A DNA stretch of 64,000 nucleotides. Source: Candidatus Nomurabacteria bacterium (GTDB taxonomy: Bacteria; Patescibacteriota; Minisyncoccia; Phycocordibacterales; UBA9973). Where the stretch lies: positions 9,462 through 73,461 of the forward strand of contig JAHFNO010000005.1 of the NCBI GenBank assembly GCA_023267275.1, read 5' to 3'. The translations under genes and the position numbers were made by a program. The notes beneath the pieces were generated by a model. That model was not told the origin of the DNA and did no database searches. It worked only from the letters and a program-made list of their open reading frames with translations. Below are positions 50,262-61,279 of the stretch, piece by piece. Each line of letters begins with the position of its first letter. Positions within the stretch are counted from its first letter, which is position 1.

Positions 50262-53200
50262 TTGTCAAATATGGAAAACACAGAACAAAAAAAATCAGCA
50301 TCGGCAGAACGTGAAGAAAAAGTTCTTTCTTTTTGGAAGGAGAACAATGTTTTCGAGGAATCGCTCAAGAAAGAATCACCGAAAGGCGAGTTCGTGTTTT
50401 TTGAAGGTCCGCCAACAGCAAACGGAAAACCCGGCATTCACCATCTTGAAGCGCGCGCATTCAAGGATGCAATTCCTCGTTACAAAACCATGCAGGGATT
50501 TCATGTTCGCCGAAAAGGGGGGTGGGATACACACGGACTTCCTGTGGAGCTTCAAGTAGAAAAAGCACTCGGACTCAATTCGAAAAAGGCGATTGAGGAA
50601 TATGGTATTGAAAAATTCAACGAACAGTGTAAAGAATCTGTCTGGCAATATCTTTCCGTTTGGGAAAAATTCACCGACCGTATCGGATATTGGGTGGATC
50701 AAAAAAATCCGTACGTAACCTATCACAACGATTATATTGAATCTGTTTGGAACGTACTCAAAAAAGTAAATGATCAAGGTCTTGTATACAAAGACTATCG
50801 CATTGTGCCGTGGTGCCCGCGTTGTGGAACTGCGCTTTCTTCACACGAGCTTGCTCAGGGATATCAGGACGACCGTGACTTGTCGGTCACGGCCAAGTTT
50901 AAAGTCATAAAGTCGAAAGTCGAAAGTCCGGAAAATACATACATTCTCGCTTGGACTACTACGCCGTGGACACTGCCGGGGAATGTCGCGCTTGCAGTGA
51001 ATAGCAGTATACAGTATGCGGTATACAGTATTCAGTATGAAAATGGAAACAAAGAAAATCTTATTCTTGCAAAAGATCTTGCTGAAAAAGTTCTTGTCGG
51101 ACAAAAATATGAAGTTGTAAAAGAAATATCGGGCGAAGAATTGGTTGGTATTGAATACGAGCCTTTGTATCCATTTCTTTCTAAACTCCTAGAGCCTAAT
51201 AAACTAGCGCCTGCATTTAAGGTATATGCTGCAGATTTTGTAACCACGACAGATGGAACCGGAGTAGTGCACACCGCTGTCATGTATGGAGCTGACGACT
51301 TCGAACTTGGTACAAAGCTCGGTCTTCCAAAAGTTCATACGGTCAATCCGGACGGAACATTCATGTCGAATATGGATTTTTTGTCGAACCGATTTGTAAA
51401 AGACGAAGATGTAGCTGTCGATATCATTAAAGACCTCGCGCATCGCGGACTTTTGTTTAAGAAAGAAAAATACGAACACTCATATCCTCATTGTTGGCGT
51501 TGTAAAACTCCGCTCATTTATTACGCGCGAGATTCTTGGTATATCCGCATGAGTGATGGAAAAATAAAGGAGCAACTCATCGAAGAAAACAAAAAAATAA
51601 ACTGGGAGCCAAATTATATTCGTGACGGTCGCTTTGGTGAATGGCTCAAAGACATCAAAGATTGGGCGATTTCCCGTGAGCGTTATTGGGGAACACCGCT
51701 ACCTATCTGGATGACGGAATCTGGGAAAATCGAAGTACTCGGTTCTCTCGCAGAAATTCGCGCAAAGACAAAAAAGTCTGGCAACACGTATTATGTTGTT
51801 CGACACGGACAAGCCGACCACAACCTCACCGGCATGGCGAGCTCAAGTCCCGATGAACCAGTACATCTCACTGAGCTCGGTAAACAACAAGTTGCAGCTC
51901 AAATTCCAAAGCTCAAAGAGTCTGGTGTTGATTTGATTATTTCTTCACCGTTTATTCGTACGCGCGAAACCGCAGAAATTCTTCGTGATGGAATCGACGG
52001 CGGTATTGAACTCATGTTTGATGAGCGTCTTCGTGAAATGGATATTGGTGTATACAACAAGGGAACATGGCAAAAATATCACGATGATTTTCCAAAGACC
52101 GTAGAAAATTTTGATAAAGCTCCAGAGGGTGGGGAATCGTATCAGACAGTCAAAAACTGGATGATGGATTTTATGCACGATGTGGAAATAAAATATCAAA
52201 ACAAAAAAATTCTTATTGTGACGCACGGTGGCCCCGCATGGCTTTTGATGGCTGGAATACAAGGACTTGATGCCGAACAATCGCTTGAAATGATTCGCGA
52301 TAAAAAAGATTTTCATTATTTCCAGAATGCCGAAGTGCGTGAAGTACCCTATGTTCCATTTCCTCACAACGAACGTTGGGAGCTCGATGTGCATCGTCCA
52401 TATATCGACCAGATACAGCTTGTATCAGAAACTGGCGAACCAATGACACGTGTGAAAGAAGTGATGGATGTCTGGTTTGATTCAGGTGCGATGCCGTTTG
52501 CACAAGATTATTATCCGTTTGAAAACAAGGCACTTGTTGATGGTGCTGGATATCCTGCCGACTTTATTTGTGAAGCTATCGACCAGACTCGAGGATGGTT
52601 TTATACACTGCACGCAGTGGGAGTGTTGATGGGGCGCGGCCTCGCATACAAAAATGTTATTTGTCTTGGACATATTCTCGACAAGGAAGGAAAGAAGATG
52701 AGTAAGTCACTCGGCAACATTGTCGATCCATGGGAGATGATTGAAAAATATGGTGTAGATACACTTCGTCTTTGGATGTATTCGGTCAATCAGCCAGGTG
52801 AATCAAAAAACTTTGACGAAAAAACAGTCGCTGAATTGCACAACAAAGTATTCAATCTTTTGTATAACGTTTTAGCTTTTTATGAATTGTATCGTGACAC
52901 AAATCTCGAATCTCAAATCTTGAATCACGAATCAAGTGGTACAGGATACAAGATACAAGATTCAAGCAACGTTCTCGATCAATGGATTGTTGCGCGACTC
53001 GGACAACTCACTGCAACAATGACGGAAAATCTTGATGCATATAAATTGCTTGAGCCAGTACGTGCACTTCGAGAATTCATCGACGACCTTTCGACATGGT
53101 ATGTACGCCGCAGTCGCGATCGAATGAAGGCTAATCCGCGAAACGCGGACGCCCGATCTAGCGAAGCTGGATTTAGGGATGGTGATGTTGAAGCAAAGCA

Positions 53201-53804
53201 GACACTGTATTTTGTATTGAAAACAATCGCAAAATTGATGGCACCATTTGCACCATTTGCTGCGGAAGATATCTGGCAGAAATTGAAGAGAGAGGGAGAT
53301 GAGGCAAGTGTGCATTATACAAAGTGGCCGCAGGAACAGGTTCTAGGTTCTAGTGGTAAGGTTCTAGAAGAAATGGAAGTGGTCAGAAAAATCGTTACTC
53401 TTGGTATGGAAGCGCGACAGAAAGCTAAAATCCCAGTACGACAACCACTCAACGAGTTGAAAGTTGAAAGTGGAAAGTTGAAAGAAGAATACATTCAAAT
53501 CTTGAAAGATGAATTGAATGTAAAGAGTATTTCCCAAACACCAAACACCAACCAGCAAGAAGCTAGTGTTGTACTCAACACTGAAATTACTCCCGAGCTT
53601 AAGCGCGAAGGAGAATACCGCGAGCTTGTTCGTGCTATTCAAGATATGCGCAAGAAACAAGGACTTACTCCAAGTGATGTAATCAGCCTTACTCTTCCAG
53701 AAAATACAAAGGAAACGATTGTTGGTTTTGAAGACGAATTGAAAAAAACAGTTCTTGCACAAACGATTGCTTTCAGTGGTGAAGAGATACTTGTACAGAA
53801 ATAA
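50262..53804 (+). CDS. ileS: Isoleucine--tRNA ligase carrying an internal histidine-phosphatase (PGAM-like) domain insertion
   Basis: HIGH-type PTANGKPGIHH, editing domain TTPWTLPGN, KMSKS; about 1180 aa. A ~200-aa insertion with YVVRHGQADHN...SSPFIRTRETAEIL...ILIVTHGG sits between WGTPLPIW and DVWFDSGAMP at ~51780-52330. Confidence 0.9.
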   Translation: MSNMENTEQKKSASAEREEKVLSFWKENNVFEESLKKESPKGEFVFFEGPPTANGKPGIHHLEARAFKDAIPRYKTMQGFHVRRKGGWDTHGLPVELQVEKALGLNSKKAIEEYGIEKFNEQCKESVWQYLSVWEKFTDRIGYWVDQKNPYVTYHNDYIESVWNVLKKVNDQGLVYKDYRIVPWCPRCGTALSSHELAQGYQDDRDLSVTAKFKVIKSKVESPENTYILAWTTTPWTLPGNVALAVNSSIQYAVYSIQYENGNKENLILAKDLAEKVLVGQKYEVVKEISGEELVGIEYEPLYPFLSKLLEPNKLAPAFKVYAADFVTTTDGTGVVHTAVMYGADDFELGTKLGLPKVHTVNPDGTFMSNMDFLSNRFVKDEDVAVDIIKDLAHRGLLFKKEKYEHSYPHCWRCKTPLIYYARDSWYIRMSDGKIKEQLIEENKKINWEPNYIRDGRFGEWLKDIKDWAISRERYWGTPLPIWMTESGKIEVLGSLAEIRAKTKKSGNTYYVVRHGQADHNLTGMASSSPDEPVHLTELGKQQVAAQIPKLKESGVDLIISSPFIRTRETAEILRDGIDGGIELMFDERLREMDIGVYNKGTWQKYHDDFPKTVENFDKAPEGGESYQTVKNWMMDFMHDVEIKYQNKKILIVTHGGPAWLLMAGIQGLDAEQSLEMIRDKKDFHYFQNAEVREVPYVPFPHNERWELDVHRPYIDQIQLVSETGEPMTRVKEVMDVWFDSGAMPFAQDYYPFENKALVDGAGYPADFICEAIDQTRGWFYTLHAVGVLMGRGLAYKNVICLGHILDKEGKKMSKSLGNIVDPWEMIEKYGVDTLRLWMYSVNQPGESKNFDEKTVAELHNKVFNLLYNVLAFYELYRDTNLESQILNHESSGTGYKIQDSSNVLDQWIVARLGQLTATMTENLDAYKLLEPVRALREFIDDLSTWYVRRSRDRMKANPRNADARSSEAGFRDGDVEAKQTLYFVLKTIAKLMAPFAPFAAEDIWQKLKREGDEASVHYTKWPQEQVLGSSGKVLEEMEVVRKIVTLGMEARQKAKIPVRQPLNELKVESGKLKEEYIQILKDELNVKSISQTPNTNQQEASVVLNTEITPELKREGEYRELVRAIQDMRKKQGLTPSDVISLTLPENTKETIVGFEDELKKTVLAQTIAFSGEEILVQK

Positions 53805-55944: not shown

Positions 55945-56523
55945 ATGCATCACATTCATCACAGCGAAGCTTTTGTGCTTGGTTCTCGACCGAAAGGGGA
56001 GGATTCAAAAATACTTATTCTCTATACTCGTGAACTCGGGCTCATTTATGCGCATGCGCAAGGTATCCGAAAAATTTCTTCGAAGCTCCGTTTTGTATTG
56101 CAAGATTTTGCTCGCGTGCAAGTAGATCTGGTTCGCGGAAAAGAAATTTGGCGTCTCACGACGGCGTCGCCGATTGCCTCACACAAAGAAATTTCTCGTT
56201 CACCCAAAGCTGAGCGCATCGTTGCACATATCGCTTCGCTTCTTATTCGACTAGTCACAGGGGAGGAAGCCAACGAAGAAGTTTTTCGCGCAATCACTCG
56301 TGCGTATGATTTACTTGCCTCGTCAAATGACACGACAGATTATCGTGTCATCGAATTGCTTTCCGTAGCACGCATTCTTGTGGCGCTCGGCTATATTTCC
56401 CGTGATGTGCTTGGTGTTGAAGAGGAAGGTACTCACGAGGCACCAAAAGCATTTGCAGATATTGCGTACCAACATCGCCTTATTCGTGATATCAATCAGG
56501 CACTCTCGGCGAGTCAATTGTAG
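55945..56523 (+). CDS. recO: DNA repair protein RecO
   Basis: EAFVLGSRPKGEDSKILILYTRELGLIYAHAQGIRK.SSKLR matches the RecO N-terminal OB-fold signature. Confidence 0.7.
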   Translation: MHHIHHSEAFVLGSRPKGEDSKILILYTRELGLIYAHAQGIRKISSKLRFVLQDFARVQVDLVRGKEIWRLTTASPIASHKEISRSPKAERIVAHIASLLIRLVTGEEANEEVFRAITRAYDLLASSNDTTDYRVIELLSVARILVALGYISRDVLGVEEEGTHEAPKAFADIAYQHRLIRDINQALSASQL

Positions 56524-56605
56524 TTGAAGGTTTATAAAGTCCATAAAGTTTGTAAAGTGAACTCAAATCCAAATAAAGCCTTAACTTGTAAGGGTTTATT
56601 GAGCT

Positions 56606-56640
56606 ATTGACAAAATAGGCATATTGGTGATATAATATAA
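56606..56640 (+). promoter_or_regulatory. Strong sigma70-like promoter upstream of the DGR target gene
   Basis: TTGACA-N18-TATAAT (ttgacaaaataggcatattggtgatataat). Followed by nested inverted repeats gttagaaaaatca...tgatttttctaac. Confidence 0.5.
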
Positions 56641-56778
56641 AAAAAGTAAAAGACTTTGAAAAAAGTTAGAAAAATCAAAGGATTTGATTTTAAAAATTGA
56701 ATTTTTTGATTTTTCTAACCAATAAAACAAGTCCCCGTAAAATAGCTTAAATCATAGCGACGATAGCGAGGCAAAAAC

Positions 56779-57450
56779 ATGAAGCCAACAACACTAGGCC
56801 AAATCGGACAGTTGCTTATGATGATAAGCAACCTATTTGTAACAATGCTTACCGAAAAGAGCAAGAAAATTTCGGAAATTGATGGTGATAAAATTCAGTC
56901 TGCCATTGATATTTCTGATAAAGAAAATTTTCTTTCTGAGTTTATCAAATGGATCAATAATGAATGCAAACTAACCTATCAACTGGTCAACGGCTTCGTG
57001 TTTGGAAATGTATTCAAACATCGCGCTGAAACAGGCGACAAAAGGTTGTACTTCGGTGACAATTACAGAGACTGGTGCGTGATACCAAATCTGAAAAAAT
57101 TTATTTCTATCCGTGAACTTGGTAAACCGAACGAATACAGGTTGCCAAAGAACATGAAGGATAGCGAAATTCAAACAGTCACTGGTAATCCGGGCAATAT
57201 GGATTTTGAAGCATATTCTATTTTGAAATACATACTTATCTTTCAGCCTGAACTCGCCGAGCAATTCTTGGGCGGATATAAGTTGAGCAAAAAAGAATGG
57301 TATGTCATGCACGTAGAACTTCCGGATGGCCGTTTGGTCTCCGTGGACCTGGGCTGGGTTGGCGACGCGTGGGGCTTCGATGCGTTCTCGCTTGGCGGCC
57401 ACACGTGGTTTGAGGGCTACTTGTTCCTCTCTTTCGCTACTAGAAAGTAG
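56779..57450 (+). CDS. DGR target (variable) protein; VR encodes its C-terminal ~32 residues
   Basis: C-terminal DNA 57345-57441 is the adenine-mismatch partner of the TR at 57744-57850. Protein otherwise hypothetical. Confidence 0.7.
   Translation: MKPTTLGQIGQLLMMISNLFVTMLTEKSKKISEIDGDKIQSAIDISDKENFLSEFIKWINNECKLTYQLVNGFVFGNVFKHRAETGDKRLYFGDNYRDWCVIPNLKKFISIRELGKPNEYRLPKNMKDSEIQTVTGNPGNMDFEAYSILKYILIFQPELAEQFLGGYKLSKKEWYVMHVELPDGRLVSVDLGWVGDAWGFDAFSLGGHTWFEGYLFLSFATRK
57345..57441 (+). repeat. DGR variable region (VR)
   Basis: About 105-nt alignment to the TR with 19 mismatches, every one at a TR adenine (AAC->GGC, AAT->GTT/TTT, GAG->GCG, TAC->TTC, GAA->GCT and others). Identical 3' block ttgttcctctctttcg. 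Followed by the hairpin gctact-agaa-agtagc overlapping the stop codon. Confidence 0.85.
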
Positions 57451-57743
57451 CTTTGTTACTGTGTTAAATTATAGAACCTTTGATTCTTTGAATCTTAGGT
57501 TCTTTTTATATATACTCAAGCACGATACTACAAGATTTCTCGGAATCAAATCTTAGAAACGAGTATCAAGGATTTGTATAGTTTAGAATTGTGCTGGAAT
57601 ATTCTTGCATAAGTGCAACATGCAAATTCTCATACATATATTATTCATTAGGTGCGATACTCTCGCGTATTTTATATACGGTATACATATACAGGAATGA
57701 TGTAGTTCATCATCTGGTGGTACAGATGGGGTATCGCACAAGA

Positions 57744-57850
57744 GTGGTCTCCGTGAACCTGAACTGGAATGACGACGAGTGGAACTTCAATGCGTACTCG
57801 CTTGACGACAACACGTGGAATGAGGGCAACTTGTTCCTCTCTTTCGAAAC
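57744..57850 (+). repeat. DGR template repeat (TR)
   Basis: A-rich and AAC-codon-rich cognate of the VR. The ORF-track entry 57591-57872 merely spans it. Immediately followed by a strong hairpin terminator. Confidence 0.85.
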
Positions 57851-57867
57851 TGGAGATATTTTCAAAG

Positions 57868-57905
57868 CATGACCCGCGTTAGCGGGTCATGCTTTGTTTT
57901 TGCCT
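57868..57905. terminator. Bidirectional hairpin terminator after the TR
   Basis: gcatgacccgc-gtta-gcgggtcatgc followed by tttgttttt. Confidence 0.6.
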
Positions 57906-58280
57906 GTCAATTTTTTCATTCGTCTTATTTTTCCAACCACCAAGAATTCTACCCACTTCTTGAATTTTTTCGGATAGTTCGGCGTATGGTTTATCTTTGA
58001 TAAGCTTGTTTTCCCATGCGATTTGGAGAAAGTATTTCAGTAAATCATTTTTGTTTATTGCAGTCACAATGAGAGGACTTTTGTTTTCGAGAGTGGCATA
58101 ATATGCTTGATAGATGACTTCAAGCAAATCTAAAAAATGCGTTTCAATTCTCGCTCCGGTTGTGTATCGGGAAGTCCTTGGCATATGAGGAACGACAGTA
58201 TTCGTCCACAATGCGAATGCTTCCTTGGCTCTCATGACTACACTTGCATTATCGAGAGAGAGAGAGTAAGGTTGCATCAT
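57879..58280 (-). CDS. avd: Avd-like four-helix-bundle protein (23S rRNA IVS-protein family), DGR accessory variability determinant
   Basis: ARIETHFLDLLEVIYQAYYA...LLKYFLQIAWENKLI...YAELSEKIQEVGRILGGW matches the four-helix-bundle IVS/Avd family. Divergent from and abutting the RT gene. Confidence 0.65.
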   Translation of the reverse strand: MMQPYSLSLDNASVVMRAKEAFALWTNTVVPHMPRTSRYTTGARIETHFLDLLEVIYQAYYATLENKSPLIVTAINKNDLLKYFLQIAWENKLIKDKPYAELSEKIQEVGRILGGWKNKTNEKIDRQKQSMTR

Positions 58281-59309
58281 AATTTTGCCAGTATAACATC
58301 TCTTGAAAATATTTTGATTTCATGGAGAGAGTTTTTGTGTGGAAAAAAGAAACGTAAAGATGTGGGTATATTTGCGATGCGACTATCTGATAATCTTATA
58401 TCACTTTCGTTTGAGTTAAAAAATAAAACATATGTTCATCAAGGATATGTCGCATTTAGGATTAATGATCCCAAACCACGGGACATTCATAAGGCGAGTG
58501 TGCGTGATAGGCTTGTACACCATGCGATACATAGAATTTCATACCCATATTTTGACCAGAAATTCGATTTCAATTCTTTTTCTTGCAGAAAATGTAAGGG
58601 TACACACAAAGCACTGTATCGTTTTGAAAAATTCAGTAATATCGTCTCAAAAAACGACACTCGCACCTGTTGGGTATTGAAATGCGACATCAGAAAATTC
58701 TTTGCGAATATCGATCACACAATTTTGAAAGAAATTCTGGCAAAGCATATAGAAGACGTAGACATTCTTTGGTTGTTCGGAGTAGTGATTGATAGCTTCA
58801 ATACAAAATGCACCACCCCACCACTCCTCATTCAGCAGAATGACCCTGGGGGTAAAGTACAGGAGGGGAAAACACAAAGAAAAAAAGGATTGCCACTCGG
58901 CAATCTCACTTCGCAACTTCTTGTGAATATCTATATGAACGAATTTGACCAGTATATGAAGCGAGAATTGAAAGTGAAACATTACATCCGCTATGCTGAT
59001 GATTTTGTAATATTAAGTGAGGATAAAACATATTTAGAAAATTTACTACCACAAATTGCAGAATTTTTGGGAACAAAACTTAAACTCTCACTTCATCCTG
59101 ACAAAGTGTTTATCAAAACACTCGCATCCGGTGTAGATTTTCTCGGTTGGGTACATTTTCCGAATCATCGAGTTCTCCGTACTGCGACCAAACGGAGAAT
59201 GGTGAAGAATATACGGAAAAATACAAAACCAGAAACGCTTGCTTCATACAAGGGAATGCTGAGTCATGGGAATGGGTATAAACTCACGCAACAGATTGAA
59301 AGAATTTAA
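58137..59309 (+). CDS. DGR reverse transcriptase; 5' boundary uncertain
   Basis: RT motifs: LPLGNLTSQLLVNIY ([ILV]GxxxSQ, a DGR-RT signature), YADDFVIL (YxDD); N-terminal ITSLENILISWREFLCGKKKRKDV resembles the bRT N-terminus. The listed ORF start overlaps avd. True start probably an alternative TTG near 58272 or ATG at 58185. Confidence 0.85.
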   Translation: MRFNSRSGCVSGSPWHMRNDSIRPQCECFLGSHDYTCIIERERVRLHHNFASITSLENILISWREFLCGKKKRKDVGIFAMRLSDNLISLSFELKNKTYVHQGYVAFRINDPKPRDIHKASVRDRLVHHAIHRISYPYFDQKFDFNSFSCRKCKGTHKALYRFEKFSNIVSKNDTRTCWVLKCDIRKFFANIDHTILKEILAKHIEDVDILWLFGVVIDSFNTKCTTPPLLIQQNDPGGKVQEGKTQRKKGLPLGNLTSQLLVNIYMNEFDQYMKRELKVKHYIRYADDFVILSEDKTYLENLLPQIAEFLGTKLKLSLHPDKVFIKTLASGVDFLGWVHFPNHRVLRTATKRRMVKNIRKNTKPETLASYKGMLSHGNGYKLTQQIERI

Positions 59310-59350
59310 TTTTGTTCATTGATTTTATGTTCTCGTGATATTATGACTAT

Positions 59351-61279
59351 ATGGGAGATGAGCAAAACGAATGGAATGCCGTGCATAATTTAGATGAAGT
59401 AAACGACCGATTGTATCGGCGTGATTTGGCTGGGCGAGTGGTACCACGAGCCGATGTGTTACATCAAAAACCAGAGCCTACGCCACGTGATTGGAACGAA
59501 GATACTATGAAAAAAAGTAAATTAGGAAATATAAAAATACACCACTCATTCTTCCGCAAATTCTTTTTTGTTTCGCTCGGATTTGCCGGAGTTGCGATTT
59601 TGTTTGCTGTCATCATGTTTTTTACCGGAGGCAATACTGTTTCGAATGCAAACATTGATATCAATGTTTTGGGTAATTCATTTACCGCTGGGGGAGAGGA
59701 ACTTCCACTGCAGGTAGAAGTAGTAAACAAAAATGCGAGCGCGCTCGAACTCTCAGATCTTTTTGTGGAATACGACAAGGGTGGCGATGCAACAAGTGGA
59801 GCAAGTCATGTGCGTGATTTGAATTCACTGGGTACTATCGATGCGGGAAAAACCGCAACCAAAAGTTTTTTTGTGACACTCTATGGTGAACAAGGAAGTA
59901 CAAAAAATGTTGATTTCACTTTGCAATATCGTTTGCATGGATCAAATGCAATTTTCGTAAAGAAGACGAGCTTTGTGGTGACGATAAATTCTGCACCTGT
60001 ATCACTTTCAGTAGATGGCCCAAAAACAATCACACCAAATCAAATGCTCACTTTTACAGTGAAGACGGTTTCAAATAGTAAGAATACACTTTCTGGAATG
60101 TTGCTTCATGTCGACTATCCAACTGGATTCAATTTTCAAAAAGCAGTGCCTGACGCAAACGCATTCAACAATGTGTGGAATCTCGGCGACCTTGCTCCTG
60201 GTGCTGAACGCGATATTGTTATTACTGGTACGGTATACGGACAAGATGGGGAAGATCGTGCATTTCATGTTTACACTGGCGCAGTAAGTGCTGACGATGC
60301 GACAAAGATTGGCGTTACATACAATTCATTGTTGCAAACCGTTTCTCTCGTGAAGCCATTTCTTGCTACACATTTGTCGATCAATGGATCAACAATCGAC
60401 CCAACTCCTGTGGGAAGTGGTAGTAACATAACTGTGGCTGTGACATATGCAAACAATTTGCCGACTCGTGTGACCGATGCATCTATCACTGTGCAGCTTT
60501 CTGGAAATGCATTGAATGCAGATAGTATTACGGTGCCAAAAGGATTTTATGATTCTGCAAAAAATACTATAACGTGGAATAAAACAACCGATGCTGATTT
60601 GGCCTCGATTGAACCTTCGGATCAAGGTGTGCTCAATTTTACATTAAGGACATTGCCACTCTGGTCTGCAGGATCAACACTTTCAAAACCAACAATAAAA
60701 CTCTCAGCAAGTATTACTGGTAAACAACCAGATCAAGGAGGCACAACAAATACCGTGACTGATTTTGAGGAAAAGACAGCGATTGTCGATTCTGATCTTG
60801 GATTTACTGGCGGTGCTTCATATGCGGCTGGACCATTTTCAAACACTGGACCGATTCCTCCAAAAGCAAACCAACCAACAACATACACAATCACCTGGAC
60901 GGTAACCAATTCTGCAAATGCGCTTGCCGACGGTCTTGCAACGGCAACATTGCCTACATATGTGGATTGGGTAGGAACAATCAGCCCAGCAAGCGAATCA
61001 CTTCAATATGATGCAACGACGAGCACGATTCGCTGGAATTTTGGACAGGTTCCAGCAGGAGCGGGAATTTCTGGTGCTTCACGAAGTGTTTCTTTCCAGG
61101 TACGTCTCAATCCATCTACATCTCAAGCGGGAAGTGTTCCAAAACTTGTGCTTGATACGACGGTTTCTGCTCGTGATACCTTTACTGGCACAATATTGAA
61201 TCTCACACGTGGGGCAATCTCAACTCAGTTGCAGAATGATCCTGGTTTTCCAGCCAATGGACAGACTGTGACTAAGTGA
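59351..61279 (+). CDS. Large membrane-anchored beta-rich surface protein, hypothetical
   Basis: Single N-proximal TM helix, then ~560 aa of Thr/Ser/Asn/Gly-rich beta-repeat-like sequence. No VR-like match to the TR. Confidence 0.55.
   Translation: MGDEQNEWNAVHNLDEVNDRLYRRDLAGRVVPRADVLHQKPEPTPRDWNEDTMKKSKLGNIKIHHSFFRKFFFVSLGFAGVAILFAVIMFFTGGNTVSNANIDINVLGNSFTAGGEELPLQVEVVNKNASALELSDLFVEYDKGGDATSGASHVRDLNSLGTIDAGKTATKSFFVTLYGEQGSTKNVDFTLQYRLHGSNAIFVKKTSFVVTINSAPVSLSVDGPKTITPNQMLTFTVKTVSNSKNTLSGMLLHVDYPTGFNFQKAVPDANAFNNVWNLGDLAPGAERDIVITGTVYGQDGEDRAFHVYTGAVSADDATKIGVTYNSLLQTVSLVKPFLATHLSINGSTIDPTPVGSGSNITVAVTYANNLPTRVTDASITVQLSGNALNADSITVPKGFYDSAKNTITWNKTTDADLASIEPSDQGVLNFTLRTLPLWSAGSTLSKPTIKLSASITGKQPDQGGTTNTVTDFEEKTAIVDSDLGFTGGASYAAGPFSNTGPIPPKANQPTTYTITWTVTNSANALADGLATATLPTYVDWVGTISPASESLQYDATTSTIRWNFGQVPAGAGISGASRSVSFQVRLNPSTSQAGSVPKLVLDTTVSARDTFTGTILNLTRGAISTQLQNDPGFPANGQTVTK

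Follow-up and report, generated by a model that had tools for sequence, protein, structure and literature searches.

The window analysed here is a 64,000-nt stretch of DNA from a Candidatus Nomurabacteria bacterium (assembly GCA_023267275.1, contig JAHFNO010000005.1, positions 9,462 to 73,461 of the forward strand), and its subject of interest is a diversity-generating retroelement (DGR) in which a target gene ending in a variable repeat (VR) is followed by a template repeat (TR), the accessory gene avd and a reverse transcriptase (RT) gene (Table 1). The VR and TR constitute one direct repeat with an offset of 410 nt, the ends of which were read from the alignment. Seventeen mismatches separate the two copies in the core of the repeat and two more lie at TR positions 57847 and 57848, and all 19 fall at adenines of the TR, which are replaced in the VR by G, T or C. 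The VR is in frame inside the 3' end of the target open reading frame (ORF), and every one of its substitutions occupies codon position 1 or 2 of the target frame. The target protein itself has no Pfam domain at E<=0.1.

The avd ORF matches the Pfam family bAvd with 56.9 bits, against a cut-off of 40, and the RT ORF matches RVT_1 with 83 bits. A DGR-type RT was taken to be an RVT_1 protein with an [LIV]GxxxSQ motif and a YxDD box; the window RT carries both, in the form of the LGNLTSQ and YADD motifs that are invariant across a 33-sequence alignment of the family. RT homologues number at least 8000 at E <= 1e-20, and those with named hosts come from Nomurabacteria, Paceibacterota, Parcubacteria and other lineages of the candidate phyla radiation (CPR), the window RT being 57-82% identical to the named Nomurabacteria, Paceibacterota and Parcubacteria proteins. 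The start of avd (ATG 58280 or 58277) overlaps the likeliest RT start by 6-9 nt, and the RT frame contains no stop as far upstream as ATG 58185 and ATG 58137. The flanking genes encode housekeeping products (IleRS, a HAD hydrolase, RecO, a DUF11 protein and GlyRS), and the element is therefore cellular. The region is a genuine, intact cellular DGR cassette of the CPR/Patescibacteria type. An earlier note on this DNA had proposed the VR/TR pair, a hairpin behind the TR, a minus-strand avd that abuts or overlaps the RT start, and the RT; all of these are present, with some coordinates corrected here.

Table 1. Coordinates of the cassette and of the signals around it, in window positions.
Feature	Position	Strand	Basis or remark
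Target-gene promoter-like site, TTGACA-18-TATAAT with TG	56607..56636	+	12/12 consensus; function inferred
DGR target gene, 223 aa	56779..57450	+	ORF, VR at 3' end
Variable repeat (VR), 107 nt	57335..57441	+	direct repeat, adenine-specific mismatches
Small hairpin GCUACU-AGAA-AGUAGC	57436..57451	+	over target stop codon
CTTTG/CTTAG repeats after VR	57451..57498	+	at 57451, 57478, 57486, 57494
Hairpin and U-run after target gene	57473..57509	+	-14.1 kcal/mol, z -5.3
TR-RNA promoter-like site, -35 TTGAAT, 17-nt spacer, -10 TATACT	57488..57516	+	promoter scan
Structured TR-RNA leader, ~220 nt (predicted)	57523..57744	+	start inferred from -10 box
Template repeat (TR), 107 nt	57745..57851	+	27 adenines, 19 substituted in VR
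15-bp hairpin, loop GUUA, and UUUUU	57863..57901	+	fold and terminator scan; overlaps avd stop codon
avd, 133 aa	57879..58280	-	Pfam bAvd PF22296
Simple-sequence repeat (GA)6.5	58254..58266		inside avd 5' end, encodes SLSL; 5 nt upstream of RT TTG
DGR reverse transcriptase	58272..59309	+	RVT_1; start taken as TTG 58272

Cassette architecture among relatives

The cassette was compared with related cassettes from 80 loci of species-representative genomes and 80 loci of metagenomes. The avd gene is found on the minus strand, immediately 5' of the RT gene, in all 74 genome loci with an Avd match and in 53 of the 55 evaluable metagenome loci. A TR with adenine-biased mismatches was located in 60 related genome loci and 33 metagenome loci, and in all of these it is on the plus strand, that of the RT, and ends 0-40 nt from the 3' end of avd. 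The VR usually sits about 400-550 nt upstream of the TR, and in five loci (L022, L024, L031, L033 and L039) it is found elsewhere, on the other strand.

This layout corresponds to architecture B3, "TR-(avd)-RT", defined by Wu et al. 2018 (NAR 46:11, PMC5758913), which accounts for 90% of their CPR set. The window shows the defining arrangement, in which TR and RT share a strand, the TR comes first and a reversed avd separates the two, and it shares with the catalogued CPR B3 elements the order and orientation of TR, avd and RT, a target directly upstream and a cellular context, without any architectural difference. The earlier note was right to place the TR between the target and a minus-strand avd, but its description of the architecture as atypical does not hold, given that target, TR, reverse-strand avd and RT in this order are the published norm for CPR and recur throughout the relatives. 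The corresponding group in the classification of Roux et al. 2021 (PMC8144416) is DGR clade 2 of Patescibacteria. DGR components on different strands need at least two transcription units (Wu et al. 2018).

The architecture alone consequently adds nothing new. In the literature examined, no description was found of a TR promoter, a 220-nt leader, a universal terminator, CTTTG repeats or a repeat at the avd/RT junction; three of these, namely the leader, CTTTG repeats and junction repeat, recur throughout the clade and deserve experimental follow-up. The closest related cassette, L082, encodes a 226-aa target and exhibits 81% nucleotide identity with the window over the target end, leader and TR. 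This cassette (L082-L085) adjoins the ribosomal protein genes S8, L6 and L18; some CPR DGRs have been reported to be interleaved with ribosomal protein genes (Wu et al. 2018).

Leader, probable terminator and probable promoter of the template repeat RNA

The target stop codon and the TR are separated by 294 nt, and covariation among relatives indicates that this spacer is a conserved structured RNA leader. RNAalifold predicts six helices from 50 sequences, with compensatory changes in 37 of the 42 predicted pairs. Alignment cells are paired in 94.6% of cases, as opposed to 39-47.5% when the partners are displaced by 1-3 columns; such displacement also lowers the covariation score from 0.82 to 0.14-0.19 and the number of cells changed on both sides from 606 to 103-147. 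None of 500 shuffles reached the observed pairing and covariation values. A leader profile built without the window finds a single match in the window, at 57651-57746 (E 5.9e-5), and matches 50 of 53 metagenome loci, always on the plus (RT) strand. The clearest helix in the window is P3, in which 57652-57663 pairs with 57728-57739 over 12 bp and encloses two small hairpins, P4 and P5; it covaries between the window (GUGCGAUAC/GUAUCGCAC) and L082 (GUUCUGUAU/AUACAGAAU). The whole 385-nt TR RNA folds with a z of -5.8.

The leader does not correspond to a catalogued RNA family: Rfam 15, which covers the RT-1 to RT-19 motifs of Weinberg et al. 2017, gave no relevant match at E <= 1 in window positions 56400-59500 and nothing at gathering score in 12 related loci. 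A survey of sequences flanking the TR by Handa et al. 2024 (preprint, 10.1101/2023.10.23.563531) was confined to 40 nt before and 100 nt after the TR, and a 220-nt leader would therefore have been missed there. A 93-aa ORF at 57591-57872, annotated by the gene caller in the ENA copy of this sequence, overlaps the TR and, in part, the leader. This ORF most likely exists only as an artefact, since the TR copies the reading frame of the target, and the leader helices evolve by compensatory base changes and not as a protein.

A second signal lies behind the TR, where a hairpin begins 11 nt past the end of the TR/VR homology. It consists of a perfect 15-bp stem (57863-57896) with 9 GC pairs, directly followed by UUUUU at 57897-57901, and its energy of about -30 kcal/mol (z = -7.2) was matched by none of 200 shuffles. 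The earlier note had described a hairpin and T-run capping the TR within 20 nt, which is borne out, and had given the stem 11 bp, which is too short. RNAalifold on TR 3' flanks aligned with MAFFT returned zero pairs because the stems are out of register, and this approach was replaced by a rule-based search with controls, in which a terminator was defined as a stem of >=5 bp with >=3 GC pairs, followed at once by a U-run and lying within about 15 nt of the TR end. Under this rule, the plus strand carries a hairpin and U-run at the TR end in 60 of 61 loci from genomes and 30 of 33 from metagenomes, whereas the minus strand gives 0 of 61 and 0 of 33; as background, 9.7% of random windows satisfy the rule. 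Across the clade, the median stem length is 8 bp and the median loop 6 nt. The stem sequences vary widely between loci (CUCUCC.., CCGCG.., CUCCUC.., CAAAGACCCC..), which demonstrates selection on structure.

The window hairpin has the form of an intrinsic terminator, being a GC-rich stem-loop with an immediate U-run on the transcribed strand, and its best reading is that of a terminator at which a stand-alone TR RNA would end. It may have a second function. Of 278 DGRs, CPR elements included, 207 are reported to have an Avd-binding stem-loop shortly after the TR; such stem-loops are commonly about 9 bp long with a tetraloop and flipped-out bases, and RNA flanking the TR is reported to be essential (Handa et al. 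2024). The position of the window hairpin and its GUUA tetraloop fit this description, whereas its stem is 15 bp long and has no bulges; by analogy, it may double as an Avd-binding stem-loop.

If Avd binding, and not efficient termination, were the main function of the hairpin, the TR and RT could instead be co-transcribed, with the RNA running on through about 370 nt of antisense avd, in the manner of a spacer, and into the RT gene. The TR and RT share a strand in every locus, as co-transcription would require, and no separate promoter was found for the RT, the sole promoter-like match (58285-58313) lying downstream of the likely start. The precedent is the Bordetella phage element, where an essential 140-nt spacer follows the TR and begins with the Avd-binding stem-loop (Handa et al. 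2024), and in some subfamilies of the present clade further pairings beyond the U-run are possible. This arrangement is nevertheless unlikely: an immediate U-run, so nearly universal and confined to the plus strand, is a signature of termination that protein binding does not need; the conserved, covarying RNA sits 5' of the TR; and no consistent structure is seen downstream of the U-run.

At the other end of the leader, a promoter-like site precedes the TR RNA in the window, with its -10 box at 57511-57516. A -10 hexamer is found in the same aligned column in 58 of 61 loci, where chance would give 2.9% per position, and it has a TG extension in 35 loci. The distance from the -10 box to the TR has a median of 231 nt (interquartile range 227-241). 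The box and the leader are also retained in the five loci in which the VR is remote, and the TR unit is therefore independent of the target promoter. Directly upstream, the window carries a hairpin and U-run (57473-57509) that is probably the terminator of the target gene; its 3' arm overlaps the -35 element of the TR promoter, and 36 of the 61 loci have a hairpin and U-run no more than 85 nt ahead of their -10 box. From promoter to terminator, the TR looks on these sequence features like a non-coding RNA gene of its own, of about 380 nt.

The earlier note had the TR without a promoter of its own, transcribed by read-through from the target promoter and ending at the strong hairpin. In favour of this, 294 nt separate the target from a TR on its own strand, the target promoter matches the consensus perfectly, and the hairpin between target and TR is AU-rich and, at -14 kcal/mol, could leak. 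We consider this route quite improbable, given the hairpin and U-run that follow the target stop codon, the -10 box held at a fixed distance from the TR in nearly all loci, and the persistence of leader and TR as a unit where the target lies elsewhere or on the other strand. That the hairpin behind the TR terminates the convergent avd, or acts in both directions, and is unrelated to the TR is hardly credible, since although the avd stop codon (57879-57881) falls within it and the minus strand can form it as well (-28.6 kcal/mol), it is followed on that strand by GAAAAUAUCUCC and not by a U-run, and the minus strand yields no terminator in any of the loci searched.

Proposed mechanism and comparison with BPP-1

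A B3 cassette with a stand-alone TR RNA acting in trans is the best explanation of these features, and we regard it as likely. Transcription would start from the -10 box, just behind the terminator-like hairpin of the target gene, and would produce a structured leader of about 220 nt followed by the 107-nt TR, ending at the 15-bp hairpin and U-run. Avd and RT, expressed from the adjacent divergent gene pair, would bind this RNA in trans, and the RT-Avd complex would copy the TR into cDNA, misincorporating opposite adenines; the cDNA would then replace the VR at the 3' end of the target gene. The TR RNA is thus probably separate and used in trans, as had been suggested from the sequence alone, but by way of its own promoter and terminator.

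Several points weigh against this explanation. The promoter, start site and termination of the TR RNA are all deduced from sequence. In the window, the -10 box, TATACT, has no TG extension and the -35 element is weak (9/12 overall), and the 5' half of the leader is too diverged for a convincing alignment. No promoters were identified for avd and RT, and a read-through transcript of TR and RT is therefore possible as the source of the RT message. The U-run behind the TR doubles as C-terminal lysine codons of Avd in most loci, and its conservation could be partly at the protein level; in L023, the U-run lies outside the avd ORF and is still kept. The last point concerns a duplex that would join the leader to the far side of the TR, which is weak and ambiguous in the window (-2.9 to -4.6 kcal/mol).

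This duplex is better defined elsewhere in the clade. An A-rich strand just 5' of P3 is complementary, in most loci, to a U-rich strand between the TR end and the terminator, and matched changes on the two strands are found between loci (AAAUGAAG/CUUCAUUU, AACGAAGC/GCUUCGUU, AAAUGAGG/CCUUAUUU, AAAGAAAA/UUUUCUUU). Cognate strands pair with -6.2 kcal/mol on average, whereas non-cognate strands pair with -3.9 kcal/mol, a difference with a permutation p < 1/5000 that is inflated by the relatedness of the loci. L082 forms 9 of 10 bp. Such a duplex would bring the leader strand beside the 3' end of the template, with P3 abutting the 5' end of the TR. By analogy with the phage DGR duplexes, it may be hypothesized that the A-rich strand is primer-like and that P3 acts like a cDNA stop, and the arrangement as a whole resembles a permuted version of the phage DGR RNA.

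The phage model is the DGR of Bordetella phage BPP-1 (mtd-avd-TR-brt). Both systems exhibit adenine-specific transfer from TR to VR and possess an RT together with Avd, and both have a stem-loop directly 3' of the TR and a duplex between sequences upstream and downstream of it. They differ in that the structured RNA of about 220 nt lies 5' of the TR here, whereas the phage has its 140-nt spacer 3' of the TR, and in that the RNA here seems to end right after the first stem-loop. A further difference is that the stretch resembling the initiation of mutagenic homing (IMH) site is not GC-rich here, and no conserved GC-rich hairpin follows the VR. The wider proposal that CPR-type DGRs depart mechanistically from the phage model in two respects, through a permuted stand-alone RNA and through a population-level on/off switch formed by a hypermutable simple-sequence repeat in the 5' end of avd, is a tentative one that we hold at somewhat short of even confidence. 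The permuted RNA may have its scaffold, its primer-like A-rich strand and P3 all 5' of the TR and end after one stem-loop. The window carries both features, in the form of the leader and of the (GA)6.5 repeat, which is currently in frame.

For the most numerous DGR clade known, the RNA of about 380 nt, from promoter to terminator, can be put forward as a candidate minimal DGR RNA. The structured part is on the other side of the template in the only model studied, and the RNA defined here provides a concrete construct for reconstitution and engineering.

Repeats at the avd/RT junction and behind the variable repeat

A simple-sequence repeat stands at the junction of avd and RT in 66 of 70 genome loci, against a background of 16%, and in 60 of 65 metagenome loci, or about 93%. 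It takes the form of poly-G of 8-12, (GA)n of 10-43 nt, (GT)n, or units of 4 and 7 nt. Among the (GA)n loci, the N-terminus of Avd reads M-x-[KRQ]-P..(SL)n..DNASIL, with which MMQPY(SL)2DNAS of the window agrees. In most (GA)n loci, no start codon intervenes between the repeat and the conserved Avd core, and the repeat is therefore placed inside the avd ORF. A start at the internal ATG 58235, which would leave an intergenic gap, was considered and rejected, given that most relatives lack a start codon there and that their Avd N-termini share M-x-[KRQ]-P farther upstream. The openness of the RT frame through the repeat (55 of 66 loci) was set aside as uninformative, since poly-G and (GA)n are free of stops in every frame.

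The relation between the upstream avd ATG and the core is scattered. The two are in the same frame in 19 of 43 (GA)n loci, and 22 of the other 24 have an open ATG in another frame. Four assemblies with the identical RT P0002 differ in their (GT)n by 0, -4 or -6 nt, which puts Avd in, out of and in frame, respectively; apart from this, they show few substitutions, nearly all of them in L174 and outside the VR. Eight assemblies with the identical RT P0038 have G11 or G12 as their sole indel, and their VR ends differ too. Four assemblies of another relative, P0006, are identical throughout and show no polymorphism of the repeat. The window avd is in frame, and its one other copy (L001) carries the same (GA)6.5. 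These data from relatives fit a phase variation of avd by slipped-strand mispairing, which would extend to DGR activity, and the 15 top-ranked results of a literature search included no link between DGRs and repeat-mediated phase variation.

Simple-sequence contingency loci are, for example, poly-G or dinucleotide tracts in the 5' part of ORFs, as in genes of Neisseria, Haemophilus and Campylobacter. The junction repeat resembles them in lying at the 5' end of an ORF, in varying in unit type and length between relatives, in being the only indel between near-identical assemblies, and in the scattered frame relation of start and ORF. It differs in that the gene that would be switched encodes the cofactor of a mutagenic retroelement and not a surface or restriction function, and in that the hosts are CPR bacteria, with the length variation seen in relatives of the window. 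A repeat tract in avd that is polymorphic between samples suggests that hypermutation is gated by slippage in organisms with reduced genomes. If this is true, targeted hypermutation would itself be phase-variable, and the gating would be relevant to how the host limits the cost of such a mutagenic element.

Between L174 and the otherwise near-identical L175-L177, five T-to-G differences were also seen, clustered in about 70 nt some 370-430 nt upstream of the RT start. They surround the TR 3' end, the terminator loop and the 3' end of avd, and the changes read as A-to-C on the avd strand.

On the target side, the earlier note had drawn attention to a small hairpin at the end of the VR as resembling the stem-loops required for homing in characterised DGRs. 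The hairpin (57436-57451) exists, and the target stop codon TAG (57448-57450) is in its 3' arm, as claimed. Alone, it is marginal (-7.4 kcal/mol, z about -2), with 4-10 of 200 shuffles folding as well, and its AGAA loop is not a GNRA loop. L082 retains a related hairpin at this site, with 5 bp and a 7-nt loop, without compensatory changes. In a set of 61 loci, the 45-nt segment spanning the VR end is no more prone to fold than its shuffled versions (mean z +0.14, t-test p 0.24; z below -2 in 2 of the 61), and the hairpin was accordingly rejected as a conserved homing element. An IMH/IMH* pair is expected at the 3' ends of VR and TR, with a GC-rich inverted repeat behind the VR copy. Just before the homology ends, the window has a 17-nt stretch that is identical in VR and TR and free of adenine (CTTGTTCCTCTCTTTCG) and is not GC-rich. 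Inverted repeats follow the IMH in only 34% of DGRs (Wu et al. 2018) and are therefore not a strict requirement.

The stretch behind the VR carries a different signal. The motif CTT[TA]G occurs after the VR at a clade-wide density of 2.64 per 100 nt, compared with 0.21 in the background and 0.13 for its reverse complement, and is thus specific to the coding strand and about 12-fold enriched, with spacing peaks at 8 and 16 nt; in the window, the last three copies are spaced by 8 nt. A role as part of the TR promoter was rejected, given that the motifs also follow VRs that are remote from the TR. They may act as a homing signal on the target side, which is the obvious candidate role.

Evidence of VR change comes from a relative. 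The VR end differs among eight assemblies that have an identical RT and otherwise identical flanks (L166-L173, first 20 nt), which indicates that diversification is ongoing there. The only other copy of the window sequence, L001, is identical to it.

Two further observations were made in the window. The 5' untranslated region of the target contains an inverted repeat at 56665-56719, just downstream of the perfect promoter at 56607-56636, with 27-nt arms that are 85% complementary and separated by 1 nt; this repeat may be a regulatory hairpin. At 50262-53804, a 1180-aa IleRS-like ORF has an apparent inserted segment with a histidine-phosphatase-like RHG motif (..YYVVRHGQADHN..), as read from the translation only.

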